Shown here in pieces: positions 9,995 to 34,476 of a stretch of DNA of 64,000 nt. A model generated the notes under the pieces. The model had not been told where the DNA came from. It saw only the letters and a program-made list of their open reading frames with translations, and did not search any database. The stretch covers positions 1 through 64,000 of IMG/VR virus record IMGVR_UViG_3300037755_001279, one strand, 5' to 3'. This stretch comes from a virus. How positions within the stretch are numbered: the stretch's first letter is position 1; each line of letters opens with the position of its first letter. Both the position numbers and the translations under genes were made by a program.

Positions 9995-10477
9995 TCACCC
10001 TGGATGACAGTATGGCGTGGGAGGGCACCATGGCGTGCGTGGCTTTACCGGGCGACCTGACCGGCGATCTTGCTCGTCGATAGCGGCATCGAGGACGTTG
10101 CAGAGGGCCCACTCGGCGAGATCTTTTCGCCGGGGCGTCCCATGGTTCAGCCCGTCGGGGTCTGCCGCGTAGATAGCTGCGCGGAGGTCTTCGTCGACGA
10201 CCCCGGCGGCATCGACGATGTACTCAAGGCTGCCGTAGTTGCCGTAGTTCGCGTTGGGCCAGCGGCGTGCATCCGTCGTTAGCTCGGGGGTTTGAGCTTC
10301 GCGCCGACCGCTGCGAATCAGCTCGTCGACGTCATCATCGCTGTGGTACCGCCCTGACTGCACGGTGGTCTCGGCGTTGAGGTAGTGTCGCGGCACTGCG
10401 TGGATCTCGACGCCATTCACAATCAATCCGATCTCCGGCTGCCAAACAGTCATGCCACCCACGCGCAGCAGCGCCAT
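9995..10477 (-). CDS. Hypothetical protein
   Basis: TGATG coupling to upstream gene. Confidence 0.55.
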   Translation of the reverse strand: MALLRVGGMTVWQPEIGLIVNGVEIHAVPRHYLNAETTVQSGRYHSDDDVDELIRSGRREAQTPELTTDARRWPNANYGNYGSLEYIVDAAGVVDEDLRAAIYAADPDGLNHGTPRRKDLAEWALCNVLDAAIDEQDRRSGRPVKPRTPWCPPTPYCHPG

Positions 10478-11361
10478 CAGCGCCGACGACGGCGCCGAAA
10501 CCCGCTGATCGACGGCGCCGGCTCCGCCGCCACGGCCGTCCCACGACGCCTGGTTCGCTTTTCGACACCGTACCGGAAGACGTTGATCAGCGCTGTCGAT
10601 GCCACAGCACCGGCGCTGATGATGCCCAGCAGGAACATCCGATCCTGGTGCCGGCGCTGTTCGAGGAGCGACGCCGAGATGGGATCTAGTGGTGGTGGTG
10701 CTACGACGTCATCCGCGTCACCCAGGCCGGCAAATCCGCGGCCGCGCCGCGTCATGAATGCCGGCCCGTACGTCGCCGGTTGACCCTGCGGTGGGATCCA
10801 CGGTGCGGGCGACCACAGACCCTGCGTGAAGGGAATCCACTGTGAGATCACCGGCGTGTGATCGTACTGCGTCGCCAGCTGCAAATCTGTCGGCACGGCG
10901 CCCAGGGTACCGTTGATGCCGCCGGCGGCGCTGTCGGGCTCATACGCCGACGTCTCCCACCAACGGAAGCCGGGGCCGCGCTCGGGCCGCTTGGTGCAGT
11001 ACGTCCCTGGGCCGAAGTCCTTGGTCGCCGAAACCATCTCGTAGCTCGGGTTCGGGCTGCGGTCGCCGTAGGGCGCCAGCACGATGCCGAGGTCGCCTCG
11101 GCGCCGCCGGCCGAACACACGACCCAGGCCGCCGCGCAGCGCCTCGATCGAACCGTACGGATCCATCACCGTACGGATGCGCGCGCCTGCGCGCTGCACA
11201 CCGGCGACGAACTTGCCCGGTGGGTACAACCAGTACCGCTGACGTGCCACCCGTGCCGGGTTTTCGCAGCCGACGGTTTCACCGACCGGCCCGGCCAGGG
11301 TCATCGTGGTGGTGCCCGGGGCGACGCCAACGGACATGGGCAGGCTCTGGGCGGTCTGCAT
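10477..11361 (-). CDS. Putative virion membrane precursor with GLG motifs, TM helix and poly-Arg tail
   Basis: LRGGLG, FAGLGD, TM MFLLGIISAGAV..., C-terminal ISGFRRRRRR. Confidence 0.7.
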   Translation of the reverse strand: MQTAQSLPMSVGVAPGTTTMTLAGPVGETVGCENPARVARQRYWLYPPGKFVAGVQRAGARIRTVMDPYGSIEALRGGLGRVFGRRRRGDLGIVLAPYGDRSPNPSYEMVSATKDFGPGTYCTKRPERGPGFRWWETSAYEPDSAAGGINGTLGAVPTDLQLATQYDHTPVISQWIPFTQGLWSPAPWIPPQGQPATYGPAFMTRRGRGFAGLGDADDVVAPPPLDPISASLLEQRRHQDRMFLLGIISAGAVASTALINVFRYGVEKRTRRRGTAVAAEPAPSISGFRRRRRR

Positions 11362-11412
11362 GGGTGGATCTAGCGTATCACGGCGTCGGGGCCCTGTGGT
11401 AGGCTGACCACC

Positions 11413-11646
11413 ATGGCGCGTTTTTCCTTTCGTCCTAGTGCCGCCGGCGGTTGCTCCGGTTCATGCCCCGCCGGCTGTTGGCTCGAACGCGACGGCAGCG
11501 GCAATTGCTACTGCTACTGCGGCGACACCGGCGCCAAGCTCCGTGGCCTCGGCGCGGCGCTGACGCCGGGCAAGATCGTGCTGGGGACGTTGTTCCTGGC
11601 TGGTGCCGCCGCCGCGGGCAAGCTCATCGCCAACGCGCTGCGGTGA
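11413..11646 (+). CDS. Cys-rich micro-protein with LRGLG and C-terminal TM
   Basis: 6 Cys in N-half, LRGLG, hydrophobic tail; promoter 7 nt upstream. Confidence 0.65.
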   Translation: MARFSFRPSAAGGCSGSCPAGCWLERDGSGNCYCYCGDTGAKLRGLGAALTPGKIVLGTLFLAGAAAAGKLIANALR

Positions 11647-11647
11647 C

Positions 11648-12025
11648 ATGCGGCTGGCCGTCGATGTTCACATCAGCCGGCGTACCTGCGACGCGTTGAT
11701 CGACAGCGGCCATGTGATCGTTACGCGCGCCCGCGACCGCGAGCGTGACGAGGACTTCTTCACGCGTGCCGTTGCTGACGGTGCGGAGGGCATTGTCACG
11801 GCGGACAAAGACTTCGCCGAGATGACGCAGCGAGCGAACGTCTACTGGATCCGCGTGGCAGGCCATGTGTCGCCGCCGACACAGGCGGCGCTGGCGTTGC
11901 TACGGCTCGAAGCAATCGCGCGGCGCAAAGCTGCGCAAATTGCGCGACACGAAGCGCGCCGGGACACAACGGCAGCGACACGCGCCGACGGCGCTGAATT
12001 GCCGCCGTTTGCGCGGCGCTCTTAG
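11648..12025 (+). CDS. DUF5615-like PIN-fold protein
   Basis: MRLAVDVHI...D..F...A...IVTADKDF signature. Confidence 0.75.
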   Translation: MRLAVDVHISRRTCDALIDSGHVIVTRARDRERDEDFFTRAVADGAEGIVTADKDFAEMTQRANVYWIRVAGHVSPPTQAALALLRLEAIARRKAAQIARHEARRDTTAATRADGAELPPFARRS

Positions 12026-12426
12026 AGCAACTTTGCCAGGCGCTCCATGTTGAGCACCATGGCGTCGGCGGCGCCCTTGAGCTTGTTCAGCTCGATCTGC
12101 ATCGACGCGGTGCCGGCCTTGGTGACGGCTTCCTTGCCGATCAGCAGGGCGCGGATCTCGTGCTTTGGATCGACCTCGACACCGGCGATGGTCGCGAGCT
12201 GCTTGAAGCGCTTCAAGAAGTCGGTCACGGCGTCTTCGTCGTCCTTGAAGAGGCCGAGGCGGATGGTCATGACGACGGCGCCCGCGGCGGTGGAGGCCCA
12301 TCGGTCGATCTCGGCGGCAGTGCTCGCGCGCTTCTTGCGCCAGGCGTCGAGGCCGAGCAAGCCGGTCAAGATGGTGATCAGCGGCGCGGCGGTTTCCGGG
12401 TTCGATAGAAATTGCCAGAGGGTCAT
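12022..12426 (-). CDS. N-terminal TM protein (holin-like or virion membrane)
   Basis: TM helix followed by WRKKR; palindrome upstream. Confidence 0.55.
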   Translation of the reverse strand: MTLWQFLSNPETAAPLITILTGLLGLDAWRKKRASTAAEIDRWASTAAGAVVMTIRLGLFKDDEDAVTDFLKRFKQLATIAGVEVDPKHEIRALLIGKEAVTKAGTASMQIELNKLKGAADAMVLNMERLAKLL

Positions 12427-12449
12427 GGTAGGCCGGGACGTTATCACAG

Positions 12450-12465
12450 GATCGCGTGCACGATC
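12450..12465. promoter_or_regulatory. GATCG-N6-CGATC palindrome between divergent genes
   Basis: gatcgcgtgcacgatc. Confidence 0.7.
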
Positions 12466-12488
12466 CGGCTTGTGGTACGCTGCCGATC

Positions 12489-12815
12489 ATGAAGCGGATC
12501 GACGATAGCCATCAGCCGTTCAAGCGCACCCGCAAGATTGGTCCCGGCCCGCGCAAGCGCCCGGCGATCCACGAGAGCAAGACCTTCGTGTGTCGGCGCG
12601 GCAAGCCGACGACGAAGCACTACATCCAGCACTGCGTCTACGTCGGCGCGGACGGCGTGAAGCACCAGACGACGATCAAGACCAAGAAGAAGTGGAAGCG
12701 CAGCTACAACAAGGTCTACCGGGCTTGGGCGCGCAACAAGCGCGCGGCGCTGGTGGCGCGTGGTCCGCAGCGTAGTTATCGGTGCCGGCGGACGGCGCGG
12801 ACGCGCTGTCGCTGA
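12489..12815 (+). CDS. Highly basic Lys/Arg-rich protein (putative DNA-condensing core protein)
   Basis: Very K/R-rich, AAG/CGC codons in frame, extended -10 7 nt upstream. Confidence 0.7.
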   Translation: MKRIDDSHQPFKRTRKIGPGPRKRPAIHESKTFVCRRGKPTTKHYIQHCVYVGADGVKHQTTIKTKKKWKRSYNKVYRAWARNKRAALVARGPQRSYRCRRTARTRCR

Positions 12816-12835
12816 CGCGTGATACTGTCCGTCGC

Positions 12836-13147
12836 ATGTACGAATGGCCGACGGACCGGACGATCCGCACACGCTGGGCGAAGTCAGCGGACATTGAGAC
12901 CCGCTGGCGGTCGGTCACGACCGACGTGCAGGTCATCGTACGTACGACCACGCGGCGGGACACGCGCCGAACCGTCCACGGCGTGCGCAGGCAATGCTAC
13001 ATGCGCCTCAGCGGGGCGATGTACATCCTCGTCGGCGCCGGAGTGGTGCGCTGGCCCAATTTCAACGAAGACGCGGCCGTCAAGCGCGCGCAGCAGTACG
13101 AACGTGCGTTCGAAGCTAGCGCCGGCGCCGTGCGCACTGCGCGGTGA
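12836..13147 (+). CDS. Hypothetical protein
   Basis: ORF track; TGATACTGT -10 just upstream. Confidence 0.5.
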   Translation: MYEWPTDRTIRTRWAKSADIETRWRSVTTDVQVIVRTTTRRDTRRTVHGVRRQCYMRLSGAMYILVGAGVVRWPNFNEDAAVKRAQQYERAFEASAGAVRTAR

Positions 13148-13375
13148 CACGCACGCCCGCGCGTTCGCCTTTTCGTCTCGTTTCAAGCTCCACCAGCGCT
13201 TCGCGCAGCCAAGCGATTTGCTCAAGACTGATCGACTTGACGTATGACCGTGGATCGCGCGGTAGCTTGTCTCGCAGGAACCTGAGCTGTTTCAGCGTGA
13301 TCACGGGGATGGTGCTGATCGTATCATGCTCGTTGACGGCGCATAACGAGCGGGATTCCCCCAACACCTGCGACG

Positions 13376-13708
13376 TCAGCGCCGGTATATGGACAGCGGT
13401 GGCCGTGCTCGCCGCCGACGGCGCGCCGTCTGTAACCTCGACACACGACACAGTGCTTGATTCACACGGCCCGCGGGGATCAGGCGGCCGCCGTTGTCGA
13501 TGAAGATCCGGTGTGCCGCGGTCTTTCGCTGCGCACCTTTCGTTCCACGCTTGATGACCACCTTCCAACCGTCGATCTTGAACGTGCCGTGGAAGTCCGC
13601 CGGGATCTTGCTGTTCTTGAACCCGAGGGCTTGACGGATGCGTGACGTGCCAGTGTCCCACTCCCAGGCGCAGGGGCTCGACGGCAGCGGTTTGTACGTG
13701 AAGGCCAT
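13376..13708 (-). CDS. Basic protein with Arg-rich tail
   Basis: TARRRRRAR tail; TGATACGGT -10 7 nt upstream. Confidence 0.65.
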   Translation of the reverse strand: MAFTYKPLPSSPCAWEWDTGTSRIRQALGFKNSKIPADFHGTFKIDGWKVVIKRGTKGAQRKTAAHRIFIDNGGRLIPAGRVNQALCRVSRLQTARRRRRARPPLSIYRR

Positions 13709-14454: not shown

Positions 14455-14916
14455 ATGCGCAAGATGTTCAGGATGGCCTACGAGAGCTGCAGCGGTAGCT
14501 GCTACGCCTACAGCGACGTGATGCGGATCCACAACCTCGGCCTCGACGCCGAGGGTGCGGCCGCGTTCTTGAAGCGGTTGCTCGCCATGCACGCGCCGTC
14601 GTGCGGCAACGGTCACCTGGCGTTTCGGCTCGACGTTGATGATGACCTTGGCGTCTTCGTCGCGTCGTTCCAACGCTACGGCGCGCTCGACCTGTTTGCT
14701 GACAAGACGCCGTTGGGTGCGATGAACAAGCTCATCGACGGCGCGTTGGCGTTCTACGCCACCAACGAGTACAAGCTGGCGATCGCCGCGTTGCCCGGTC
14801 ACGGTCCGGCGGCGTGTCAGCATGGCGACGACAAGAAGCTCGTCAACTTCGCCATCGCGTTCAGCGGCCTGTCCGATGCCGAGCAAGCCGAGCTGCGCGC
14901 GCAGTTCGCGAGCTAA
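14455..14916 (+). CDS. Hypothetical protein
   Basis: GGAGGA RBS and GTCGGA-type promoter. Confidence 0.65.
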   Translation: MRKMFRMAYESCSGSCYAYSDVMRIHNLGLDAEGAAAFLKRLLAMHAPSCGNGHLAFRLDVDDDLGVFVASFQRYGALDLFADKTPLGAMNKLIDGALAFYATNEYKLAIAALPGHGPAACQHGDDKKLVNFAIAFSGLSDAEQAELRAQFAS

Positions 14917-15647
14917 AGCACCGCGCGCGCGCCGCGATACGCCACCACCGACGCACCGATCGCGCCGAACCCGATCGCCGCCATCCCGAGGTACGTCCCC
15001 CACCAGCGCCCGGTCGCGCTCATGAATGCCGACCGGCTGACGCGCACGCCGGCGTTCGGCTCGCTCATCGATGGCGCCACCTCGACGTAGTCCGAGAATC
15101 CGCTGAGGCCCTGCTTGGGCACGGCGAGCCGATAGTTCCGGCTGAAGAGGTCGTAGAACCAGATCGCCTGCGCCGGATTGCCGGGGATGGCGCCGCCGGC
15201 GGTGTAGACGATCGGCGCCGTCACCGTGTTGCTGGTGACGGCGTACGGATTGCCACCGGGCTGCCACAGCGTACCGGCCTTGATCGACGCGGCCGTCGGC
15301 GTCGGCGGTGTCGTCGCCCCCGATCCGATTCGGTATGCCTCCAGGGCGATGATGCCCTTGGAGATGGTGCCTGCGTTGCGCGTGATGATGCCGTAGGCCT
15401 GTTTTTGCCCGTCGGCCGTCGCGAGCAACAGCGCCATGACCGGCGCCAGCGCCCGGATCTCCTCTGGCATCCCGGGGACGCGCGGCAGCATCGCGATCAC
15501 GGCCATGGCCGTGCGTGCACCGACGATGCCGTCAACGGTGCCGGGGTCGGCAGGCGCGTAGCCGGTGAGCTGTACATATGCCTTGAGGACGCGCTGCAGC
15601 TCGGCAACGCCGGAGTCACTCTTGGGGGTAGCGCCGGGGGCGGCCAT
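14913..15647 (-). CDS. Peptidoglycan-binding-domain protein with C-terminal TM
   Basis: VAELQRVL...GTVDGIVGARTAMA (PG_binding_1-like) and hydrophobic tail. Confidence 0.7.
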   Translation of the reverse strand: MAAPGATPKSDSGVAELQRVLKAYVQLTGYAPADPGTVDGIVGARTAMAVIAMLPRVPGMPEEIRALAPVMALLLATADGQKQAYGIITRNAGTISKGIIALEAYRIGSGATTPPTPTAASIKAGTLWQPGGNPYAVTSNTVTAPIVYTAGGAIPGNPAQAIWFYDLFSRNYRLAVPKQGLSGFSDYVEVAPSMSEPNAGVRVSRSAFMSATGRWWGTYLGMAAIGFGAIGASVVAYRGARAVL

Positions 15648-17060: not shown

Positions 17061-17810
17061 ATGGCTCGGACCTCGATTTTCCGCTCGCCGATTTTCTGGG
17101 GTGGCGTCGGCGTGCTTGCTGCGGGCGTCGGGGTGGTGCTGCACCAGCGCCGAAACGAGTTGCTGGGGCGCGGCCGCGGCCCGCGCGCCGCCGGCCCCAC
17201 GCCGGTGTTGATCACGCGCAACCCGGCCAAGATGCCGACGGCCAGTGAGACGCGGCACATCGACGGGCGGACGGTCAAGCGCTTCGACATGAAGTCGATG
17301 TCGATCGACGAGCGTTTGAAGCTCATCCAGGCGCAGACCTGGGACGGCGTGCAGGATCCGCGTATCCGCAAGCTGGCGTTTCAGATCACCGCAGGCTGCG
17401 GGCGGGACGACGGCGATTGCGAGGCGCGGCGCATCTTCGACGCCGTCAAGGCCAAGGTCCGGTACACCGGCGACGTCGGCCCGGTCATCAACCCGGCTAC
17501 CGGCAAGGTCGAGGGCATGGACTACTACCAGAAGCCCTGGGTGACCTGGGAGTACGGCGGCGGTGACTGCGACGACGCGGTCGCCCTGGTGTCGTCATTG
17601 ATGGCAGTGATCGGGCACACGGTCCGTCTGCGCGTCAGCGCTCCGTCGCGGCTGGCGGATTGGGCGCACATCTACCCGGTTTCGATCCTGCCCAAGGACA
17701 ACCCGCGGACGCCGAAGGCCGTGGACATCACGTTGCCGTGGAAGGCGCAGGTCGGGTCCGAGGCGAAGTACGGCAAGGCGCGGGACTACTTGATCGAGGC
17801 GCCGGCGTGA
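17061..17810 (+). CDS. Transglutaminase-like cysteine protease with N-terminal TM (candidate maturation protease)
   Basis: VRYTGD...GDCDD (Cys), WAHIYP (His), AVDIT (Asp) triad. Confidence 0.8.
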   Translation: MARTSIFRSPIFWGGVGVLAAGVGVVLHQRRNELLGRGRGPRAAGPTPVLITRNPAKMPTASETRHIDGRTVKRFDMKSMSIDERLKLIQAQTWDGVQDPRIRKLAFQITAGCGRDDGDCEARRIFDAVKAKVRYTGDVGPVINPATGKVEGMDYYQKPWVTWEYGGGDCDDAVALVSSLMAVIGHTVRLRVSAPSRLADWAHIYPVSILPKDNPRTPKAVDITLPWKAQVGSEAKYGKARDYLIEAPA

Positions 17811-17842: not shown

Positions 17843-18016
17843 ATGGCGTTCTCACCGAAAATGGCAATGCGGATGGCACACGCGCGCTGCAAGCGCGACG
17901 CGCACAAGTTTCCGTCGTACGTGCGCTGCGTCGGTGCCGTCATCCAACGCATCGCCAAGGGGTCGGGCATCAGCAAGACCGGGCTGCGCGGTGGCCGTCG
18001 ACGGCGGAAGCGTTGA
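17843..18016 (+). CDS. 57-aa basic peptide ending LRGGRRRRKR (below ORF-track cutoff)
   Basis: GAGGAG RBS, ATG 17843, TGA 18014-16; translated by hand. Confidence 0.7.
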   Translation: MAFSPKMAMRMAHARCKRDAHKFPSYVRCVGAVIQRIAKGSGISKTGLRGGRRRRKR

Positions 18017-18195: not shown

Positions 18196-18660
18196 ATGAA
18201 CCCCATCGCCGACCTCCGCGCCGCCATTGCACGGCTCGATCACGTCCCCGGTAATACGCCGGTCGAGTTGGCGGCGAGCTATGGCGCGCCGCCGGCGCTT
18301 GCCTACGATGCGCGCATCGGATTGGTGCGCCTGAACGTCGGCGGCGGCAGCCCGGCCGGGCGGCCGACGATGGCGCAGCTGCGCGCCTGGTTCAGCGTGC
18401 CGACGTCCGGTGGTCTTGCCGGGCCCTGGGATTCTGCCCGCGGCCTGGAACAACTCAACTGGCGCGGGCTCTTGGTGCTCGCCAGCGCGCTGATCTCCGG
18501 CTTCCACGGCGTACGACGTAACGGCGGCTCGCCGTTCTGGGGCGTCGTGTGGTTCGGACTCGGCGCGGCGCTGCCCGGCGTGGTGCCGGTCGTGGCGCTG
18601 GCGCAGGGCTACGGTCAATGCGCCAACAATTGTCGGCTGTCGCCGACGGAGCGGCGTTGA
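18196..18660 (+). CDS. Membrane protein, paralog A
   Basis: GFHGVRRNGGSPFWGVVW...ALAQGYGQC. Confidence 0.7.
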   Translation: MNPIADLRAAIARLDHVPGNTPVELAASYGAPPALAYDARIGLVRLNVGGGSPAGRPTMAQLRAWFSVPTSGGLAGPWDSARGLEQLNWRGLLVLASALISGFHGVRRNGGSPFWGVVWFGLGAALPGVVPVVALAQGYGQCANNCRLSPTERR

Positions 18661-18686
18661 TTCGCCGCGCGCAAGGAAATCAACCA

Positions 18687-18944
18687 ATGATGCCCCTCGG
18701 ACTCCTCGATTACCGCGTCGAACAGCGCCTCGGCGCACCGACCTTCGAAACCCCGGGCTTCGGCGTCTGGACCGTGCTCTCGCTCGCCAGCGCCGGCGTC
18801 AGCGCCTACCACGGCAGCAAGCGTCACGGCGGCAGCATCGGCTGGGGTGTTGCCTGGGGCTTGCTCGGCGGCCTCTTTCCGATCCTGACGCCGGCGATCG
18901 GCGCTGCGCAGGGCTTTGGCACGTGCAAGTACGACTGCCGGTGA
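18687..18944 (+). CDS. Membrane protein, paralog B
   Basis: AYHGSKRHGGSIGWGVAW...AAQGFGTC. Confidence 0.7.
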   Translation: MMPLGLLDYRVEQRLGAPTFETPGFGVWTVLSLASAGVSAYHGSKRHGGSIGWGVAWGLLGGLFPILTPAIGAAQGFGTCKYDCR

Positions 18945-19212: not shown

Positions 19213-19239
19213 GATCGCGTGCGCGATCCCGGCTACCGT
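19213..19239 (+). promoter_or_regulatory. GATCG-N6-CGATC palindrome plus -10 TACCGT
   Basis: Direct reading; ATG at 19249. Confidence 0.7.
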
Positions 19240-19248
19240 CATCACAAC

Positions 19249-19908
19249 ATGGCGAAGCACGGTCCCGAGATGCACTACATCCGCCCCGACGGCGTGTACA
19301 TCACGAGCGTGCTGCAGCCGACCGTCGGCGCTGGCTTCAACCCTGTCCCAGATACCATGGCCATCGCCGCACGCTTCGTCGCGCCGACGGGCCTCGCCGG
19401 GCCGATGGGCCAGATCGCGATCCTCGGTCGCCAGGCCCGCCGCAGCCCGACCCGCGCGTTCATGCCGTTCCAGCGTGCCTTCCGCAAGCCCAAGGGTCTC
19501 GGCTCGCCGATCGGTGACCGCTGGCGCATGTTCGTCGCGCGCGTCCGCGCCAATTTCCAGGCCAATCGATTCGTGCAGGACATGCGCTTCATGCCGGCCG
19601 GCCCCGGCGTGGTGACCATGGACACCTCGCCGCGACCGATCAACACCGACCCAACGGCGCTCGCCGTCCAAAGCGGCTGGGCGCCGTCGCCGCAGTCGCC
19701 CGCGTCGGCCTCGAACTACATGCCGGCTCAGGGCGACCCGGGCAACAACGACGCCACCGTCCTTGCGCTCAACCTCGCGCCGAGCGAAGCCGGCAAGCCG
19801 ATCCAGCTGTGGCAGCGCATCATGCAGAGCGGGTTGCCGCCGATCGTCGCCGCGCGTGCCGAAGACGACATCATCACTCGTTGGTTCAAGGCCAAGGCGA
19901 GCTGGTAA
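19249..19908 (+). CDS. Putative virion core precursor
   Basis: LAGPMG, KGLGSP motifs around an Arg-rich segment; in capsid cluster. Confidence 0.7.
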   Translation: MAKHGPEMHYIRPDGVYITSVLQPTVGAGFNPVPDTMAIAARFVAPTGLAGPMGQIAILGRQARRSPTRAFMPFQRAFRKPKGLGSPIGDRWRMFVARVRANFQANRFVQDMRFMPAGPGVVTMDTSPRPINTDPTALAVQSGWAPSPQSPASASNYMPAQGDPGNNDATVLALNLAPSEAGKPIQLWQRIMQSGLPPIVAARAEDDIITRWFKAKASW

Positions 19909-19910
19909 CC

Positions 19911-20099
19911 ATGGCGACGGCAATCACCCTCGGTGACTCACGCCGGCCGCGCCGGCATGGGCTCGGCGCGCCCGGTGACGTCGCCGGCTGCCGCTGCGTG
20001 CGCGGCGGCCGCAACCGCAACCGGCGCGTTCTGCTCTGCCCCGTCTCCAAGTCCAAGAAACATCGCAGCGGCTGGGCCTTCAGCGGCCCGTGCACCTGA
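19911..20099 (+). CDS. Basic Cys-containing micro-protein with GLG motif
   Basis: TLGDSRRPRRHGLGAPG... Confidence 0.65.
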   Translation: MATAITLGDSRRPRRHGLGAPGDVAGCRCVRGGRNRNRRVLLCPVSKSKKHRSGWAFSGPCT

Positions 20100-20154: not shown

Positions 20155-20709
20155 ATGAGCAACACCGACCTCGCCGGCAGCCTCGGCGACTACATGCCCC
20201 GGGGCCTGATGGAGTGGGCGCCGGTTCTCGGCGCCGGCACCGCCGCGAGCGGCACCGTGCTCGCGCGCGTGATGGCACCGGCCGGCTCGTGGTTCTCGCG
20301 CAACGCCGAGATGTCCGGCGTGCTGCTGTCGAGCGCCGTCGCCGCCGCGCTGGCCGCGATGCCGGGCACCCGGCCCGCTGCCTTGATGACCTTCCTCGGC
20401 GGCGTCGCCGCCGGCCTGCCCCGTATCCTCGAACGCTACGCGCTCGGCGGCGGCGTGTCGGGCATCGGGTACTACGCGGCTGAGACCGCCAATCCGCTCC
20501 TCGGCATGGTCCGGGCTGACCAGCTCGGCTACGCCACTGCGGGCCGCCAGCCCCACGCCTACGGCACTGTGCCCGGCGTCGCCGGCGGTGCGCTGGCCGG
20601 CCCGATGGCCGACAGCGGCAACGGTCCGCCCGTGAATCTCCTTGGCCATGGCCACGGCGACCACATGTCGATGGCGTCACGGTTCGGCGCCACGCACATG
20701 AGCCGCTGA
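20155..20709 (+). CDS. Gly/Ala-rich membrane protein directly upstream of capsid candidate
   Basis: Hydrophobic helices; LAGSLGDY, VSGIGYY motifs; palindrome at 20098-20113. Confidence 0.7.
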   Translation: MSNTDLAGSLGDYMPRGLMEWAPVLGAGTAASGTVLARVMAPAGSWFSRNAEMSGVLLSSAVAAALAAMPGTRPAALMTFLGGVAAGLPRILERYALGGGVSGIGYYAAETANPLLGMVRADQLGYATAGRQPHAYGTVPGVAGGALAGPMADSGNGPPVNLLGHGHGDHMSMASRFGATHMSR

Positions 20710-20820: not shown

Positions 20821-21531
20821 ATGTCCATGGGCACCGTCGGCGTCGCACCCGGCACCACCACGTTCACCCTGCAGGATGGCACCGTCATCGCGCTCGCCGA
20901 CTGGATCGACGATCGCGTCTACGGTGTGGTCCAGCTCTCCAACGGCCAGTCGGGCTCGCTGGAGTGCTTCGGCGCGGGCATCTCGCAGCAGATCCCCGGC
21001 GGCACGCGCACCCTGAACCTCGCCGACACCAACCTCCAGCGCCCCGGCAGCAACGGCCTGCCGCAGGCGTACGAGCTGCTGGTGTTCTCGATCGGCATCG
21101 ACTTCATCCGCGCCTGCCGCCCGCAGACCGGCCAGTCGCAGCCGGTCGCGAGCGACACCTCTGGCGCGCTGTCGGAGCCGCTGCGCAACGATACGTTCTT
21201 CGGCATCAACCGCCTCACGAACGTGCAGTTCAAGTACCGCGAGAAGGTGTACGCCGAGGGCCTGCCGGTGAACTTCCCGAACGGGCGCGGCGCGTGGATC
21301 AACGTGACCACGTCGGACTTCGAGGTCGTGAACAACGGCTTCGTCGACCCGCGGTCGCGCAACTCGATGGTGCTGCCCATCCGGCTGCAGGAAAACCTGA
21401 GCTTCAAGCTCGTGTTCGGCCCGCAGCAGCCGCTGGTCATCAGCCAGGACGCCACCGACGGCGGCGTCGACCTGACCTTCGTGGACGCGCGCGGCGAACT
21501 CAATGGCCTGTACAAGCGCCCTGTGGTCTGA
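20821..21531 (+). CDS. Candidate major capsid protein 1 (single jelly-roll-like)
   Basis: Strong AGGAG RBS, strongly biased codons, beta-rich, DTNL...GLP..YELLVFSIGI motif; fold not verified. Confidence 0.6.
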   Translation: MSMGTVGVAPGTTTFTLQDGTVIALADWIDDRVYGVVQLSNGQSGSLECFGAGISQQIPGGTRTLNLADTNLQRPGSNGLPQAYELLVFSIGIDFIRACRPQTGQSQPVASDTSGALSEPLRNDTFFGINRLTNVQFKYREKVYAEGLPVNFPNGRGAWINVTTSDFEVVNNGFVDPRSRNSMVLPIRLQENLSFKLVFGPQQPLVISQDATDGGVDLTFVDARGELNGLYKRPVV

Positions 21532-21567
21532 ACCACCATCCGGCGCCGTGCCGGACATGTGAAAGAG

Positions 21568-21596
21568 GGGGTCGAGCTGTAAGGCTCGGCCCCTTT
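21568..21596 (+). terminator. Strong hairpin / probable terminator after capsid candidate
   Basis: GGGGTCGAGC-TGTAAG-GCTCGGCCCC-TTT. Confidence 0.65.
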
Positions 21597-21649
21597 GCAT
21601 TTGACAGAACCGCTTGATCGGTCACGCGATCCGGGCCATGATGCCAACC

Positions 21650-22153
21650 ATGGGACGCCTTGCACAGAGCTTCGCCGGGTTGCTGATCCAGGACATGATC
21701 CCCTACAACGTCCCGAGTGAGCAAACCGTCACGACGGGGCAGCAGGGGCAAGCGTTCCCCAACGCAGACCTGCTCAATTCCGAGGGCCACCCTTTCGCCG
21801 TCCATCGGATGATCATCCGCATCCTGGCGCTCGATAGCGAGGGCCTGGTGCTCGCGACCCAGCCCGACATCGAAGTTCGCGAAACGCTGGTCAAGTTTCG
21901 GTTCGTGCTGCAGGGCTTCAATCAACCCGCGACCAAGGCGCCGGTGCGCATCGGCAACTTGCTCGGCGGCACCACGAGCGAGCGCTACTGGCGCTACGAA
22001 GAGCCCTTCGTGCTGCCCAACAGCTACGGCGTCCTCGCCACCATCGACTGCGACGCCTTCCCGGCGACGTTTGCGGCCTCCGGCATCATCACCCTGCGCG
22101 TGACCATCAACCTGCAGGGCTACAATCTGATCGTCGAAAAGCCCAACGGCTGA
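21650..22153 (+). CDS. Candidate capsid protein 2 (single jelly-roll-like)
   Basis: Beta-rich 167 aa, PFAVHRM...EPFVLP...INLQGY; palindrome 21616-21631 and -10 CATGAT upstream. Confidence 0.55.
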   Translation: MGRLAQSFAGLLIQDMIPYNVPSEQTVTTGQQGQAFPNADLLNSEGHPFAVHRMIIRILALDSEGLVLATQPDIEVRETLVKFRFVLQGFNQPATKAPVRIGNLLGGTTSERYWRYEEPFVLPNSYGVLATIDCDAFPATFAASGIITLRVTINLQGYNLIVEKPNG

Positions 22154-22162
22154 TCGTCTTCC

Positions 22163-22480
22163 ATGGCCATCAATACTTCCATGGGCGTCGTCGCGGTGGC
22201 CACACTCCCCGCGAACACCGTCGGTCCGTTCTACGTCGCGCCGGATCAGACGCCGATGCGTGTGCTCGTCCGTAACCTCGGCGGTTCGGTGGTCTTCCTG
22301 ACGTTCACGTCGGCCGGCATCAACGGCCTGAACGTCACGTCCGAGCACTTCGAGCTGCCGGCCGGCCTGTCGGACGCGTTCGTGCTGCAGCCACGGCAAT
22401 CGCTGTTCGCTGTCGCTCCGGGCGCCAACACGCGGCTCTGCTACAGCGCGTCGGTCGCGCTGCCGGTCCAGGGGATCTGA
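22163..22480 (+). CDS. Small beta-sandwich virion protein (penton/minor capsid candidate)
   Basis: VLVRNLGGSVVFL...FELPAG...LFAV pattern. Confidence 0.55.
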   Translation: MAINTSMGVVAVATLPANTVGPFYVAPDQTPMRVLVRNLGGSVVFLTFTSAGINGLNVTSEHFELPAGLSDAFVLQPRQSLFAVAPGANTRLCYSASVALPVQGI

Positions 22481-27805: not shown

Positions 27806-28747
27806 ATGGCGCAGCAGCTCACCCAGCAAATGGCGACCGACATTCAGGCCATGATGGCGAACGTCCAGGTCGGCTACGAACAGACCAACGCCGCCCGGAC
27901 GGCGCTGTCGACGCTGATCAGCTCCGGCGTCGCTACCTGCCGCGACGTGCAACTCTACAACCTGCAGGTGAAGGCCGTCTACGCCTACCAGGCCAGCGTC
28001 GCAGGTATCATCCGAGCCAACGGCGGCGCGCCGCCGAGCGTTCCCGCGCCCATCTACGTTGGCTGGCGCGGTGTGGCCGGCGATGCCTTCGCCAACGTTG
28101 ACTGCAACGCCGCGCAGATGCGCGGGTCCGCGCCTGTATCGCCGACCCTCGGCGCGCCCAACAATTTCTACATCAACCCACAGCAGGTCGAGTGGCGCCA
28201 GGGTGCACTGCCGTCCGACAACACCGTCGTGTCGCAGGTGGTTGCCGCGGCGGGTAATGCTGCGGTGACGGCCGGCCAGCTGGGTGCCGTGCAGCTCTTG
28301 GCCGTCATCCCGATCATCATCATCGGCATCATCGTCATCGTCGCCGCGACGATCGTGCTCAAGATCGTCGAGGCGTTGACGGACATCCCCGGCAAGCGCG
28401 AGACCACCAAGCAGGTCGCGATCCAGGCCGAGCAGCATCGGATGACCCTGGAAGCTCGCGCGGCGTGTCAGACGGCGTGCGTAGCCGCGGGCAAGGACCC
28501 GATCGAGTGCGCCAAGGGCTGTACCCGATCGCTGCCGGACTTCGTCGCCAAGTTTCCTGGTGGCGGCTGGGGCATCTTCGGCACAGTCGCCGGCGTCGCT
28601 GTGCTTGGCCTGGCTGCGTACGCGGGCTTCAAGTACGTCAAGGCCGGTGGTGGTGGCCGGGCTCACAGCGGTGGTGGCGTGAAGTACGCACTCACGCAGC
28701 GCGACAAAGACCGTGCTATCGACGCGGATTACGACGAGGTGGCGTGA
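27806..28747 (+). CDS. Two-TM putative virion membrane protein with Cys cluster
   Basis: Ile-rich TM, CxxxC...CxxxC, second TM; -10 TATCCT 7 nt upstream. Confidence 0.75.
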   Translation: MAQQLTQQMATDIQAMMANVQVGYEQTNAARTALSTLISSGVATCRDVQLYNLQVKAVYAYQASVAGIIRANGGAPPSVPAPIYVGWRGVAGDAFANVDCNAAQMRGSAPVSPTLGAPNNFYINPQQVEWRQGALPSDNTVVSQVVAAAGNAAVTAGQLGAVQLLAVIPIIIIGIIVIVAATIVLKIVEALTDIPGKRETTKQVAIQAEQHRMTLEARAACQTACVAAGKDPIECAKGCTRSLPDFVAKFPGGGWGIFGTVAGVAVLGLAAYAGFKYVKAGGGGRAHSGGGVKYALTQRDKDRAIDADYDEVA

Positions 28748-30957: not shown

Positions 30958-31020
30958 GGGCGTGCTTCTTTCTTTGCGTGATGTTCTACGGCTTGATGTC
31001 GCGGTGGACGATGGGCTGCG

Positions 31021-31152
31021 TCAGCGAGCGGGTGGCCGGCGCGGCGGCATCGGGCGCCCAGGCGAGCCGGGGATCTTGGGACGCGTGCAACACGGTGGCT
31101 GCGGGCGTGGTGGCGTCGGACGGGACGGGGGGCTGAACATGGGGCGGCGCAT
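31021..31152 (-). CDS. Possible 43-aa Pro/Arg-rich peptide
   Basis: GGAG RBS; MRRPMFSPPSRPTPPRPQPPCC... fills the gap between co-oriented genes. Confidence 0.4.
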   Translation of the reverse strand: MRRPMFSPPSRPTPPRPQPPCCTRPKIPGSPGRPMPPRRPPAR

Positions 31153-31164
31153 AGCGGTTACTCC

Positions 31165-31761
31165 TCAGCTCTTGGGCGTCATGAGGATGACGCCGGCGGC
31201 GATGACCCCGACGAAAAGGATGGCGCCGCCGATGATGTACGGCAGCTTGCTCTTGGTGGCGGCAGACGTCGCCGGAAAGGTCGTCGGGATGACTGGCGTT
31301 GGGTAGGACGACGGGATCGTCAGGATGGGAACCGGCGCCGTCGCCGGCAACGTGCCGCTGATCTGCTTGAGGATGTCGCGGATCTTGTCAGCGTTCTTGG
31401 CAACCATCTCCGGGTTGACGTATCCAGGGAGCACCGACGCCATGGCGTTGCCACGGCTGACGGCGACGGCGGCGACCTGCTGCAGCGCCTGCACCGTCCC
31501 GCTGCCGACCTTGCCGTCGGCGGCAATCTGGACGCCGGCGCCAAGCTGGCCGGACACACGGTTGATCTGCCCCTGCATCTCGCGGATGGCGACGTCGCAG
31601 CTGGAACAGTTGCTCGATGCCCAGATCGCGCCGTACTGCGCGACGCCGACGCTCTGCGCCGTGGTCGCGGCGCCGAGGTACTGGTTCAACGGCGCTGCGT
31701 TGGGTACCCCGACCTGGCCGAAGCCAAAGCCGCCACTGAATCCACCGCCGTTGAAAGGCAT
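31165..31761 (-). CDS. Peptidoglycan-binding-like protein with C-terminal TM
   Basis: MQGQIN...IAADGKVGSGTVQAL; tail LPYIIGGAILFVGVIAAGVILM; palindrome 31779-31794 upstream. Confidence 0.7.
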   Translation of the reverse strand: MPFNGGGFSGGFGFGQVGVPNAAPLNQYLGAATTAQSVGVAQYGAIWASSNCSSCDVAIREMQGQINRVSGQLGAGVQIAADGKVGSGTVQALQQVAAVAVSRGNAMASVLPGYVNPEMVAKNADKIRDILKQISGTLPATAPVPILTIPSSYPTPVIPTTFPATSAATKSKLPYIIGGAILFVGVIAAGVILMTPKS

Positions 31762-31834
31762 GGGGGTTATCTTACACGGATCGCGTGCACGATCTAGACC
31801 TAGAACGCCACGTTGAGGTGGTACGCTGGCTACC

Positions 31835-32719
31835 GTGAGCATTCCGTCGGTCTCCGAGCTGTTCGCGCCCGTGACGTGTATGCCGGCGTGGATGACCCAC
31901 TACGCCGCGGCGCCGAACGTCACCGTGTCCTCAGGGTGCAGCACCAATGCTGCCGGCAACGTCAACTGCGACCCGGCGGCGATGGCGCGCGCCGCGGCGA
32001 CCAAGACGGGGTTGCCGGTGTCGCTGGAGGCGTACACGCTGGCACGCTACGTCACCAGCGAGGTCGGCACGCGCGCCGTTGGTGAGCGCGTGGCGGTGGC
32101 CCAGGCTGCCGTCAACCGGGTGCACTACGTTGACCGGACCGGAAGTGTCCTGAACTTGCTCCTGTACCGTCAGAAGGCCGGACACCCGAATCGGGGCTTC
32201 TACGGTCCGATCCACGGCGACGGACTGAGCGCGCCGTACGGGCGCTGGGCGGCGACGTCACGTGACCCGGCGCTCAGCAACCTGATGATCGCCATCGACG
32301 TCCTGAGCGGCAAGATCCCGCCGGGCTTTGCCAAGGGCGCCGATGATCAGTACGGCCCGGAGATTCTCGTTGCGCGGCAGGGCCTGGCCGTGACGCAGAA
32401 CGGTGTGAAGACCCGCGGCGCCGACCGCAAATATTGGGTCGGTCCGTTGCCTGGTGTCGATCATCAGCGGACGTTCCTCTACACGTTTCGGCGAGACATC
32501 GACCCCAAGAGCGACAACGGCAAGCTGCTCATCGCGCGCGGCGTCGCAGCGATGGCGCAGCCCCGGCCCAACTGGTCCGGGTTGCCGACCTGCCCTGAGG
32601 GCTCGGCGATTCCGGCCATTCCGGGCGGCAGTACCACCGCTGCGGTGATCGGCGGCGCGGTGCTGGCGACGGCGGCCGTGGTCGGCGCGGCGGTATGGCG
32701 CCGGCGTCAGGACGCGTGA
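31835..32719 (+). CDS. SleB/Hydrolase_2-like cell-wall hydrolase with C-terminal TM
   Basis: LARYVTSEVG...ERVAVAQAAVNRV catalytic-Glu signature. Confidence 0.7.
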   Translation: MSIPSVSELFAPVTCMPAWMTHYAAAPNVTVSSGCSTNAAGNVNCDPAAMARAAATKTGLPVSLEAYTLARYVTSEVGTRAVGERVAVAQAAVNRVHYVDRTGSVLNLLLYRQKAGHPNRGFYGPIHGDGLSAPYGRWAATSRDPALSNLMIAIDVLSGKIPPGFAKGADDQYGPEILVARQGLAVTQNGVKTRGADRKYWVGPLPGVDHQRTFLYTFRRDIDPKSDNGKLLIARGVAAMAQPRPNWSGLPTCPEGSAIPAIPGGSTTAAVIGGAVLATAAVVGAAVWRRRQDA

Positions 32720-32732
32720 TAGGGTAGGCGGC

Positions 32733-33104
32733 ATGGCGCGTGAAAAAGAAACCTTCGTCGCGCGCGTGCACCATCAGCGGTATGGCGGCACGCACGGTTA
32801 CGACTTCGAGTCGCCGCCGAAGACGTCCGTGCAGTCAGCGATGGCGACGGTCGATGCGCAGTGCAAGGCGGGCAAGTACATCACCGTCAAGAGCAACTAC
32901 ACGTCCAACGGCGATCACTGGCCAGGTCACCGCGGCCGCATCATGGCGACCTGTGAGCGCAAGGCGTGGTTCGTCGAGACGTTTCCACCGGGTGATCACG
33001 GCGATCCGAGCGGACGCTTGAAGGGCGCACGCGGGCGCTGCCCTGCCAACATCGGCCGCAAGCGCGCACCGGCCAGGCTGCGTCGCAAGCGTGGTGCACG
33101 ATGA
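32733..33104 (+). CDS. Hypothetical protein with LKG motif and basic tail
   Basis: GRLKGARG...RLRRKRGAR; TGATAGGGT -10 7 nt upstream. Confidence 0.65.
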   Translation: MAREKETFVARVHHQRYGGTHGYDFESPPKTSVQSAMATVDAQCKAGKYITVKSNYTSNGDHWPGHRGRIMATCERKAWFVETFPPGDHGDPSGRLKGARGRCPANIGRKRAPARLRRKRGAR

Positions 33105-33418
33105 GTGCGCCGACGCAGCAGCAGGTGGCCGAGGCCGCGGCGCGGTACTGCGCTACAGAATTCACGACGTTCACGTCGTGGTTCAGTTATGAGGACGAGC
33201 TGGCTCGCGAGCTGATGAAAGACGACCAGTTTCGCTGCGCAGTTGACTACGCCACCAAGCAGGTCATGACGATGATCAGCTACAACAAGACGATGTCCGT
33301 GACCGCCGCGCAGCACGGCGGCGGCGCGCGTGGAATAGCTGTCGTTGTCGGCCACATCGTCGGTGAGTGGCTCGCCGGCAAGACGACGACGATCGATCAG
33401 GAGTTGATGACGTGGTGA
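33101..33418 (+). CDS. Hypothetical protein
   Basis: ATGA overlap. Confidence 0.55.
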   Translation: MSAPTQQQVAEAAARYCATEFTTFTSWFSYEDELARELMKDDQFRCAVDYATKQVMTMISYNKTMSVTAAQHGGGARGIAVVVGHIVGEWLAGKTTTIDQELMTW

Positions 33419-34476
33419 CGTTCACCGACCTGCTGAGCGCAGCCAAGCGCGCGTTCCGTGCGCGCGACTGCGGTGCCGCCCGAGACGCCACGCGGCGTCT
33501 TTTGATCACCGCGCGGACGCCCAAGGAACGCGAGACCGTCATGCGGCTGCAGAACGCCGTGCGGCGCTGCAAGGTCCGGCCGTTGGCCGGGCCAACGCGG
33601 TCGTCGAAGCGTCGCCGGCGCGCAACGCGCCGTGGCCTCGGTGCGATCACGGTGACGTCGGATGCCATTGCCGACCGCATGGAAGCGATCAAAGAGAACC
33701 CGGAGCCGACACGGTTGGCAGCGCAACGCATTCAGACGATCGCCAATGAGCTTGCAGCCGCCGGTGACAGCTTCGGCGGAAAGGTGTTCATCTCTGACAT
33801 CGCGCGGCGGCTCGACTCATCGGTGAAGCGCCTGGCGCCGATCCTGCTTGCAGCCAATCGGAAGGGCTGGCTGTCGATGGCGCGTGCCGACCTGCGGGGT
33901 GCCATGGACCCCGTCAAGGTCGACGCAAGCGAGATCCGTTACCTGAACAGCGAGGTGCATTTCGTGACCGTGCCGCCGGAGATGATCAAGGACGTTCCTG
34001 CGCCGCCCGACCCGCCGCCGCGTCGCGCGGCTGCACGGCCAGCTGCGCGGCGTGCTGAAGCCGCCATCGAGCCGGGCAGCCTGACGCGGGCGCAGCTGAA
34101 GACGTTGTTTCAGATTCGTCGCAGCGTCGGCGACCACGAAAGCGCTGCGATCGTCGAGGCGGCGCTGTCGCCGAACGAGGCGACCGACCAATACGGCGAT
34201 CCGTTGTTCGACGCGGCGGGCGTGAAGATTACGCGAACGCAGGCGGTCAAGCAGGCGCGGACGATCTGGGCTCGCAACGCACCGCGCGCGTTGGAGTGGT
34301 ACAACGTGGCGGTGTCGAGGGCTGTGGCCGCTGACGTGGTCCCCGCTGAGTGGACGGCGATTGCCGATGCGATTCACCGTGAAACGCCGGCGGTCGACGT
34401 TGCGGACATGGCGGCCCGCGAGCAAGACGCACGAGCGCGCGCGCGCGGGGCGCCAGGCGCTAGGCGACGAAGATGA
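33412..34476 (+). CDS. Multidomain protein: basic leader, GLG motif, winged-helix-like domain
   Basis: RRRRATRRGLGAIT then KVFISDI...LSMARADL..AMDP. Confidence 0.65.
   Translation: MVTFTDLLSAAKRAFRARDCGAARDATRRLLITARTPKERETVMRLQNAVRRCKVRPLAGPTRSSKRRRRATRRGLGAITVTSDAIADRMEAIKENPEPTRLAAQRIQTIANELAAAGDSFGGKVFISDIARRLDSSVKRLAPILLAANRKGWLSMARADLRGAMDPVKVDASEIRYLNSEVHFVTVPPEMIKDVPAPPDPPPRRAAARPAARRAEAAIEPGSLTRAQLKTLFQIRRSVGDHESAAIVEAALSPNEATDQYGDPLFDAAGVKITRTQAVKQARTIWARNAPRALEWYNVAVSRAVAADVVPAEWTAIADAIHRETPAVDVADMAAREQDARARARGAPGARRRR

Follow-up and report, generated by a model that had tools for sequence, protein, structure and literature searches.

Virion maturation proteases belong to the serine type in tailed phages and herpesviruses, and to the adenain/Ulp-like cysteine type in adenoviruses, giant viruses and their kin. 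To our knowledge, no site-specific maturation system has been described for bacterial jelly-roll viruses, and none that employs a transglutaminase fold; full-text literature searching yielded nothing that ties a transglutaminase-like enzyme to the maturation of phages or jelly-roll viruses. Here we analyze a 64,000-nucleotide stretch of viral DNA (hereinafter, the window), the first 64 kb of the 126,509-bp IMG/VR record IMGVR_UViG_3300037755_001279 (GC content 65.5%), in which a transmembrane (TM) helix-containing protein with a Cys-His-Asp triad is encoded at 17061-17810. An earlier note on this DNA proposed that this protein runs an adenovirus-like, proteome-wide processing program at recurring glycine motifs of the form [LMFI]xG(L/G)G. 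Comparison with related viruses reveals that a glycine motif beside a conserved enzyme of the transglutaminase fold runs through an undescribed group of viruses, with the window as a weak, degenerate example; the idea of a processing code fits the virus family better than it fits the window genome.

The motif most closely resembles the cleavage sites of the adenovirus protease, which are given in PMC4246237 as (M/I/L)XGG↓X and (M/I/L)XGX↓G (arrows mark cleaved or candidate bonds) and are found in capsid and basic core precursors. The consensus derived from the relatives of the window virus, [LMIVF]-x-G-[LFM]-G, coincides with the adenovirus type-2 site, (M/I/L)XGX↓G, and the general shape of the site, hydrophobic-x-Gly-x-Gly, is the same, as illustrated by IVGL↓G of pVI and LNGLG here; according to PMC4246237, the two systems are also alike in that many unrelated particle proteins carry sites, Arg-rich segments are flanked by them and the major shell protein is not a substrate. 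In contrast to adenovirus, the candidate enzyme here is a TM-anchored transglutaminase-fold Cys-His-Asp protein, and six-frame searches of the 126.5 kb genome at E-values up to 1 give no match to Peptidase_C5 or Peptidase_C48 (adenain, Ulp-like); furthermore, the host is probably bacterial, the motif is weak in this particular genome, and the cleavage sites are putative.

Among cellular enzymes, LapG cleaves the adhesin LapA at a di-alanine, and a TM anchor is predicted for the related DvhG (PMC10990149). LapG and DvhG (BTLCP, Peptidase_C93) share with the viral enzyme the transglutaminase-like fold, the Cys-His-Asp triad and the pattern RY..D...GDC[DE]D; LapG, however, has a single periplasmic adhesin substrate, whereas many substrates in an assembling particle and a Gly-based site are proposed here. 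Phage T4 offers a parallel in placement: according to PMC7411985, several unrelated internal proteins carry N-terminal leaders of about 10-20 residues with a common end motif, which gp21 removes in the particle, and the T4-type prohead protease also processes itself. Unlike the cysteine enzyme considered here, T4 gp21 and the SPN3US/phiKZ-type prohead proteases come from HK97-type tailed phages, are of the serine type and cut at Glu-based sites. Finally, PeiW and PeiP of methanogen viruses are, similarly to the window protein, virus-encoded and of the transglutaminase fold with a Cys-His-Asp triad, but these pseudomurein endoisopeptidases are soluble lysins that contain cell-wall-binding repeats, act on the host wall and have no link to a proteome-wide motif.

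The transglutaminase-fold enzyme

The gene at 17061-17810 (+) encodes a membrane-anchored Cys-His-Asp enzyme of 249 amino acids (aa) which, on account of its fold, triad and homologues, is a candidate maturation protease. Homologues detected at E-values up to 0.001 number 43, nearly all of similar length, and several of them are encoded on contigs of 85-132 kb. The N-terminal hydrophobic helix (residues 11-27, IFWGG...VVL, 17091-17141 (+); helix at residues 10-34 in the AlphaFold2 (AF2) model) is Gly/Ala-rich, is kept in 17 of 19 aligned homologues and is followed by a strongly basic stretch (HQRRNELLGRGRGPR), such that the post-helix sequence runs through HQRRNE and LLGRG (residues 34-38) into the globular domain. 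This LLGRG linker between the TM helix and the catalytic domain (17160-17174 (+)) is a candidate self-release site, judging from homologue comparison. It falls inside a stretch of the AF2 model (residues 31-40) with a low predicted local distance difference test score (pLDDT); close homologues carry LLGRG or LLGAG in this place, and the last Gly of the linker is at least 90% conserved (32 sequences). Seven distant loci (L007, L009, L010, L011, L013, L015 and L016) possess the canonical h-x-G-L/F-G (h, hydrophobic) directly after the TM helix and the basic stretch, in the form of LAGLG, LTGLG, FNGLG, ISGLG or similar sequences.

The predicted catalytic residues are Cys170 within GGDCDD (17559-17576 (+)), which aligns with GAGDCEDY of LapG, His203 within AHIY (17664-17675 (+)) and Asp222 within AVDITL (17718-17735 (+)). 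No variation is seen in GGDC170DD, H203 or D222 in either of two alignments (19 of 19 and 32 of 32 homologues), and the same is true of C113, C120, E121, R134, Y135, D138 and D154. The Pfam profile Transglut_core (PF01841) matches 30 of 32 family members, with a best E-value of 5.4e-8; the window enzyme itself, at 17.5 bits, does not reach the cut-off of 23, and a six-frame search of the genome with PF01841 recovers it once, with an E-value of 1.7e-4. A VIA-align comparison started with the AF2 model (pLDDT 82.6) identifies two putative bacterial cysteine proteases, 3kd4 (Z 12.7, root-mean-square deviation 2.7 over 136 residues) and 3isr (Z 10.8), along with factor XIII (Z 9.4), LapG (9.0), PeiP (8.6) and PeiW (8.3), and PNGase also aligns. 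Foldseek aligns the model with LapG at E-values of 1.7e-4 to 2.6e-4. LapG is also nearest to the enzyme family in a profile search of PDB sequences, a weak match (E 0.076) that includes the common pattern RY..D...GDC[DE]D, and one of the 32 family members weakly matches Peptidase_C93 (PF06035; E 0.019). Taken together, the profile, the triad and the core fold confirm that the enzyme belongs to the transglutaminase-like superfamily. Thus, the enzyme half of the initial observation, namely, a Cys-His-Asp triad behind a TM helix and an LLG linker, is borne out by the invariant triad, the Transglut_core matches, the fold alignments and the modelled helix.

A Pfam search with 112 window proteins and 90 others of the same genome shows, among the matches listed (25 of 32 families in one batch), no protease except for a DUF2201_N-like one. 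The lack of a detectable adenain/Ulp-like gene agrees with processing by an enzyme of another family than that of adenovirus, for which the transglutaminase-fold enzyme is a candidate.

A glycine motif in the structural module of related viruses

The main set of relatives comprises 19 IMG/VR contigs, from each of which the 20 kb surrounding the enzyme gene were taken, with 589 predicted proteins in all. A blind ranking of all tripeptides in these proteins, relative to the composition of each protein, is led by GLG, which is found 206 times in 146 proteins (79.1 expected, p=1.5e-32), with GFG in fifth place (80 vs 30.2 expected). Around this core, L is favoured at position -2 (3.4-fold) and N, S or R at position -1, and the consensus found in this blind manner is the one given above. 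Outside TM-like stretches, with sequences shuffled locally over 10 residues, G[LF]G is observed 246 times vs 99.1+/-9.1 (z 16.1) and [LM]xG[LF]G 78 times vs 12.3+/-3.9 (z 16.7). Individually, 15 of the 19 loci are enriched with z of at least 2.7, and the five-residue motif is present in 106 of the 589 proteins and 38 of 240 families. An origin of GLG from the composition of TM helices was rejected because the excess outside TM-like stretches survives the local shuffles; just 40 of the 286 G[LF]G of relatives lie within such stretches. Two other candidate explanations were discarded, Asn-Gly self-cleavage at LN↓G, given that Asn occupies position -1 in only 34 of 275 sites, and a lipobox or sortase-type signal, given that no Cys follows the motif and a C-terminal TM helix is usually not adjacent.

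In two complete relatives, motif copies exceed expectation only in the structural module, near the enzyme and capsid genes. When these genomes are divided into 10-kb bins, the two bins around the enzyme contain 26 motifs vs 7.5 expected in G001 (17 vs 18.6 in the other seven bins) and 16 vs 7.4 expected in G004 (24 vs 32.1 elsewhere). DNA matches coding for LNG[LF]G number nine in five whole records; all are one-stranded and, in the four records with a match, form one short stretch per record, which in G001 and G004 falls within the enriched bins. The module itself is not uniform. The jelly-roll-like families (F3, F8 and F9) are depleted of the motif, with 2 G[LFM]G in 47 relatives vs 9.0 expected (P=0.006), whereas the enriched families (F0, F1, F2, F5, F10, F11, F19 and F21) consist of membrane and Gly-rich proteins; the window encodes members of these families, with genes starting at 18196/18687, 10477, 15661, 20155, 19219, 14913 and 27806, with the exception of F21. 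The enzyme family (F4) contains 17 G[LFM]G vs 7.2 expected.

Within proteins, 29 of 143 five-residue motifs end in the first 20 residues (13.0 expected, p=3.1e-5), a location reminiscent of the T4 gp21 leaders, and the same 143 motifs display no C-terminal bias. Other copies separate a conserved domain from a TM helix or an Arg-rich spacer, and family F5 contains tandem LNGLG-[IMFYL]P units with an 11-residue spacing. The middle residue of the motif varies among clades: GFG is found 6, 12, 11 and 7 times in loci L017-L020 (1.5-2.0 expected) and 8 times in L023 (2.7 expected), and in L018 and L023 its count equals or exceeds that of GLG. This shift is clade-wide and spans several unrelated families, and such coordination suggests a single common reader of the motif. 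For the most distant clade, the word ranking sets aside collagen-like and other low-complexity repeats, and the few enriched words found in many proteins are exemplified by LGF (24 vs 8.1) and NGF (14 vs 3.5). The structural regions of L023 and L067-L070 also encode long collagen-like GAT/ATG/TGA and VAP/PVA repeat proteins.

A candidate processing code and its alternatives

Because the motif is confined to the structural module, avoids the shell proteins, closes leaders, occupies anchor junctions and recurs in the linker of the enzyme, the only protease-like one of the module, it can most simply be read as a protease recognition site that perhaps doubles as a targeting tag. We tentatively prefer the interpretation that the transglutaminase-fold enzyme cuts this tag, which would be a code for maturation or targeting and a convergent counterpart of the adenovirus protease system and of leader trimming in phage T4, while regarding it as a working proposal with somewhat less than an even chance of being correct; cutting of the motif, the identity of the cutter, the position of the scissile bond and the particle type are all inferences. 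Under this scenario, the tag would mark the non-shell particle proteins, being placed at the ends of short N-terminal leaders, where TM anchors or Arg-rich spacers meet folded domains, in interdomain linkers and in tandem units. The enzyme would first free itself at its own LLGRG or LxGLG linker, then trim leaders and detach domains from their anchors, and Arg-rich peptides would be released during particle maturation. A more far-reaching version, about which we are more doubtful, holds that bacterial jelly-roll viruses (77-220 kb, probably membrane-containing) have fully reinvented, by convergence, an adenovirus-like code read by an anchored transglutaminase-fold protease, with leaders trimmed, anchors cut and Arg-rich DNA-binding peptides freed from between paired sites, and with a specificity that drifts by clade (GLG, GFG, LG). 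If cleavage by this enzyme is real, it would represent a third, independent enzyme solution to virion maturation, its near-identity with the adenovirus code would be a case of striking convergence, and the motif would at once predict, throughout an uncultured virus family, which proteins are substrates and where they are cut; if this reading is wrong, the motif would still rank with the most pronounced short linear motifs of any viral proteome that lack an explanation.

Several observations weigh against cleavage by this enzyme, beginning with the window genome, for which 1000 shuffles preserving the composition of each protein were used as the background. The pattern [LMFI]xG(L/G)G occurs 5 times at 9-38 kb vs 2.60+/-1.55 expected (p=0.115) and 2 times at 42-64 kb vs 0.97 expected (p=0.258), and the adenovirus consensus occurs 27 times at 9-38 kb vs 22.0 expected (p=0.144). 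The peptides listed in the earlier note are all present at or near the positions given there, but about half of them (LSGFS, LAGPMG, KGLGS, HGLGA, LAGSLG, GQLGA, LKGA and RGLGA) depart from this pattern. For this genome taken by itself, the lack of significant enrichment over composition-matched shuffles refutes the proposal in the terms set by the earlier note; the broader claim of a proteome-wide program run by a transglutaminase-fold enzyme retains the motif enrichment, the placement and the enzyme linker in relatives. With a pattern chosen post hoc, G[LF]G outside TM-like stretches, 14 occurrences are found at 9-38 kb vs 7.7+/-2.5 (z 2.5) and 10 vs 16.5 expected in the other 154 proteins; equally post hoc, 16 of 27 G[LF]G fall at 9-38 kb (binomial p=0.0057). 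When di- and tripeptides are ranked without bias in 119 proteins of the window clade, that is, the window (5-38 kb), L005 and L034, the top 14 words include no Gly motif, and RRR is first (62 vs 24.3 expected). By hand count, 6 of 17 Arg runs have a Gly at most 3 residues upstream, which is unremarkable given about 22% expected at 8% Gly; kept in orthologues are L[RK]G or [IL]SG beside Arg stretches.

Further difficulties come from the relatives. No enrichment is seen individually in L005 (z 1.5), L010 (0.6), L014 (1.1) and L023 (0.9), nor, for the L/F/M-centred core, in L067, L069 and L070 (z -0.2, 0.7 and -0.7), in which the enzyme is present. Thus, the enzyme is retained in loci where the motif is not evident (L010, L014, L023, L067, L069 and L070), and its triad is intact in the window clade, in L010 and L014 and in the L023/L067/L069/L070 clade, where the motif is weak or absent. 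Co-occurrence of the enzyme and the motif over capsid-gene-centred loci is not discriminating, since three enzyme-bearing loci also lack the motif; one record with the major capsid protein gene (G006, 88% complete) and no detectable enzyme lacks the motif as well, a single case that is uninformative. The counts in relatives are inflated by the shared ancestry of orthologous sites, and leader lengths are uncertain because gene starts come from a home-made caller. The modelled fold by itself does not tell a protease from a transglutaminase, PNGase or cell-wall isopeptidase, and both cleavage and the identity of the cutter are putative.

If the motif is not cut, it could be a linear binding or targeting motif, for loading into the particle or for docking on the shell, the membrane or an assembly factor, with the enzyme acting otherwise. 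The tandem units of family F5, with their regular spacing, resemble repeated docking sites and fit such a role as well as they fit cleavage, and the absence or weakness of the motif in several enzyme-bearing clades is compatible with it, too. N-terminal tags can indeed target proteins, as does the capsid targeting sequence of T4, but that leader is also cleaved, according to PMC7411985. Pure binding, moreover, leaves unexplained why short orthologues of the protein encoded at 10477-11361 start exactly at M-x-LG; the motif is also present in the flexible linker of the enzyme itself, and protease subsite codes typically combine a hydrophobic P4-like position with small residues, as the motif does in agreement with the adenovirus site (PMC4246237). 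On balance, we view the uncut tag as unlikely. The possibility that the motifs listed for the window arose by chance in a Gly-, Leu-, Ala- and Arg-rich proteome in which nothing is processed is confined to this genome; it agrees with the lack of enrichment of the proposed pattern, with similar observed/expected ratios at 9-38 and 42-64 kb, with the near-background count of the adenovirus consensus (27 vs 22), with the clade scan devoid of a Gly motif and with the unremarkable occurrence of Gly before Arg runs. Several sites, however, are kept in all three members of the window clade, although the spacers around them vary, and correspond in alignments to canonical sites of distant relatives, the G[LF]G tripeptides cluster at 9-38 kb and the enzyme triad is intact, so that we give chance little credence.

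The remaining alternatives concern the enzyme. It could be a particle-borne or lysis-phase cell-wall peptidase or isopeptidase similar to PeiW and PeiP, in which case the Gly motifs would be unrelated or cut by another protease. Both PeiP and PeiW are among the fold matches (Foldseek rank 14), the next two genes (18196 and 18687) encode small two-TM proteins that are possibly holin-like, and the hydrophobic helix is Gly/Ala-rich; however, LapG, 3kd4 and 3isr outscore PeiP, the two-TM neighbours are among the motif-richest families and are conserved together with the capsid genes, and no second protease is recognised among the family matches listed. According to the positive-inside rule, a basic flank opposes export of the adjoining domain, and the strongly basic stretch after the helix therefore disfavours export of the enzyme domain. 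A signal-anchor-release (SAR) endolysin, which the Gly/Ala-rich helix might bring to mind, is rated low given the same basic flank. A cell-wall role is, in our estimate, improbable. Finally, a true transglutaminase could cross-link particle proteins, the Gly-rich tags then marking flexible substrate loops. The cores of factor XIII and TG2/TG3 align with the model (Z 9.0-9.4), and Gln is often found near the tandem units (G-[IM]-P-Q-[IV]), but the motif is not accompanied by a conserved Gln or Lys, and the residues around the catalytic Cys (GDCDD) resemble those of the protease LapG, surroundings that we take to be unlike the active-site sequence of animal transglutaminases. Cross-linking thus appears very improbable.

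Candidate sites in window proteins

Alignments with orthologues indicate that several of the previously listed window sites are degenerate homologues of canonical sites in relatives, and we propose that the window clade retains, at homologous positions, only decayed forms of the tag, namely LG, LxG or LAGP. The most informative case is the tail-anchored protein encoded at 10477-11361 (-; 294 aa), for which orthologue alignments point to five candidate sites on the same strand: LRGGLG (11122-11139), DLG↓IVL (11080-11094), TLG↓AVPTD (10894-10908), FAGLGD (10717-10734) and a C-terminal ISG followed by six Arg residues (10480-10509). FAGLGD aligns with LSGLG, LRGLGE, KRGLGE and PSGLGE of orthologues, and TLG↓AVPTD with LRGLG↓AMPTD, AGLG↓MVPTD and others. 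In the window, L005 and L034 alike, EAL[RK]G is followed by a basic spacer that varies and then by LG↓IVLAPYG, the C-terminal [IL]SG with poly-Arg is also kept, and the short orthologues mentioned above begin with M-x-LG-IIL.

Two consecutive genes downstream of the enzyme show a related arrangement. In the 229-aa protein encoded at 19219-19908 (+), the start of which is possibly at 19249 according to its orthologues, LAGPMG (19393-19410) and KGLGS (19492-19506) flank an Arg-rich spacer; LAGP is kept throughout the window clade, and distant orthologues contain LQGLG, LSGLG, MSGLG or FRGLG in the same variable linker. The adjacent small basic, Cys-containing open reading frame (ORF) at 19911-20099 (+; 62 aa), in which an RRPRR spacer separates ITLG from HGLGA (19956-19970), was missed by the gene caller, which left a 246-nt gap in its calls, but is conserved in at least 10 related loci, with the alignment M-x-x-I-M-T-L-x-G, basic spacer, (G)LG(A/D); by this conservation, it is a real small gene missed by simple callers. 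A cassette that consists of h-x-G, an Arg-rich spacer of 9-25 residues and (G)LG recurs in these two proteins and in those encoded from 10477 and 33367. If both ends of the cassette were cut, a basic peptide would be freed, in the same way as mu is freed from pX in adenovirus.

The Gly-rich two-TM protein encoded at 20155-20709 (+; 184 aa) belongs to family F5, which has 59 G[LFM]G in 18 relatives vs 24.2 expected; its candidate sites are LAGSLG↓DYMP (20170-20187), VSGIG↓YY (20455-20472), LLG↓MV (20497-20511) and QLG↓YA (20521-20535), all on the plus strand. The last of these, QLG↓YATA, corresponds to INGLG↓YATA in L005 and L034. The 313-aa membrane protein encoded at 27806-28747 (+) carries GQLGA (28274-28288) just before its first TM helix, and x-G-L-G aligns with it before the TM helix in 6 of 6 relatives. 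For the tail-anchored protein encoded at 14913-15647 (-; 244 aa), the alignment identifies GLSG↓FSDYVEVAPS (15093-15107): before the conserved DYVE(V/I)APS, the window, L005 and L034 align LSG-F, LAGEY and TLGGY, and the relatives of this family (F11) have N-terminal leaders that end in LSGFG, VRGLG, LSGLG or VPGLG. The two paralogous two-TM proteins that adjoin the enzyme (18196-18660 and 18687-18944, within 18196-18944 (+)) belong to family F0, with 46 G[LFM]G in 38 relatives vs 10.6 expected, many of them in N-terminal leaders that end with h-x-G-L-G; the candidate site in the window is GGLAG↓PW (18415-18429), and LAG[PF]W is kept in this region in the entire window clade.

The 369-aa protein encoded at 33367-34476 (+) contains LAG↓PTRSSKRRRRATRR-GLG↓AITV (33583-33597 and 33631-33645) and a C-terminal RRRR. 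The module that follows LG in this protein recurs after ALALG↓TVTV in the protein encoded at 81818-83599 of the same genome, starting right after LG in both. This second protein (81818-83599 (-), outside the window; 593 aa) combines a GDSL lipase domain, a TM helix, RRRR-QLNGLG and the shared C-terminal module.

Three further candidates lack detectable orthologues. A 77-aa ORF at 11413-11646 (+) contains the on-pattern LRGLGA (11539-11556) before a C-terminal TM helix, and a 57-aa ORF at 17843-18016 (+) ends with LRGG-RRRRKR (17984-18013); the gene status of both is uncertain, and they may not be genes because no homologue is present in any of the 20 related loci examined. The tail-anchored protein encoded at 31165-31761 (-; 198 aa), for which no homologue was found among the related loci either, starts with a candidate N-terminal leader, MPFNGGGFSGGFGFG↓QVG (31717-31740).

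Probable jelly-roll-like capsid genes

Three conserved genes for beta-rich, motif-free proteins at 20827-21531, 21614-22153 and 22163-22480 (20827-22480 (+)) probably encode jelly-roll capsid proteins. The first of these is the most conserved gene of the region, with 90% identity in the closest relative and 33-59% in others. The AF2 model of its product is a beta sandwich (pLDDT 65.8), and the best structural matches are viral jelly rolls, although weak ones (PCV2, E 0.013; SPV1, Z 6.5; HHIV-2, Z 5.7; PRD1, Z 4.5). Given the weakness of these matches, we consider it probable, rather than established, that the proteins of the module are virion proteins of a tailless jelly-roll virus. A second, divergent copy of the jelly-roll-like gene (28-30% identity) is located at 84745-85437 (-), 64 kb from the structural module.

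The jelly-roll-like protein (20839-20862 (+)) and the protein encoded at 10477-11361 (11305-11328 (-)) share an N-terminal tag, VGVAPGTTT-h-x-L. A capsid-like protein with this pattern is found in 16 of 19 related loci, and 13 of these also encode exactly one second, small protein, in which the tag is directly followed by L-(x)-G, LGLG or LNGLG (loci L005-L022). By its sequence, this membrane protein looks like a mimic of the N-terminal arm of the capsid protein.

Genome and related viruses

The source record has a CheckV completeness estimate of 98%, is classed as linear and has no terminal repeats; 205 genes were predicted in the 126.5 kb genome with the home-made caller, which is based on codon usage. 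The relatives are viral contigs of 77-221 kb. Direct terminal repeats are present in four of the five relative records checked (G001-G004), three of which are rated 100% complete (85, 129 and 138 kb). A scan of metagenomes for close relatives returned just 10 loci, distant and mostly short, which were left out of the analysis. Locus L034, whose enzyme is 66% identical to that of the window, lies on a 78.7 kb contig of a metagenome-assembled genome labelled Tessaracoccus sp., which hints at a possible actinobacterial host, binning of viral contigs being unreliable. In our reading, the window represents a hitherto undescribed family of large viruses (about 77-220 kb) that probably infect bacteria and for which we propose jelly-roll-like capsid genes and many membrane-anchored particle proteins.

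The structural region is nearly devoid of database matches: a PHROGs search with 10 structural-region proteins gave 0 matches, and a six-frame search of the genome with Pfam Phage_capsid (PF05065) and Terminase_6N (PF03237) found nothing. The only Pfam match placed in the 9-38 kb region is the S74 fibre-chaperone domain; the batch Pfam scan of the region lists families without naming the carrier protein. The S74-containing protein, encoded at 35717-37726 (+; 669 aa), consists of about 20 degenerate repeats (...NTAVG...) and a C-terminal Peptidase_S74 intramolecular-chaperone domain (E 3.4e-11), and is fibre- or spike-like, although the genome has no detectable tail genes. One protein each matches DUF2201_N, a putative metallopeptidase, and VWA-like DUF2201, with 60848-62023 (+) as the guessed carrier; the DUF2201_N protein is the only other peptidase-like match among those listed and shows no evidence of a link to the structural module.

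The replication genes are phage-like and include a family A DNA polymerase fused to a uracil-DNA glycosylase (UDG), an SNF2 helicase, ThyX, a superfamily 3 (SF3)-like helicase, methylases and an integrase. The Phage_integrase match (E 5.4e-18), in the 64-126 kb part of the genome, suggests a temperate lifestyle. The protein encoded at 59616-60848 (+) matches AAA ATPases, and at least two thioredoxin-like genes are located within 64-126 kb.

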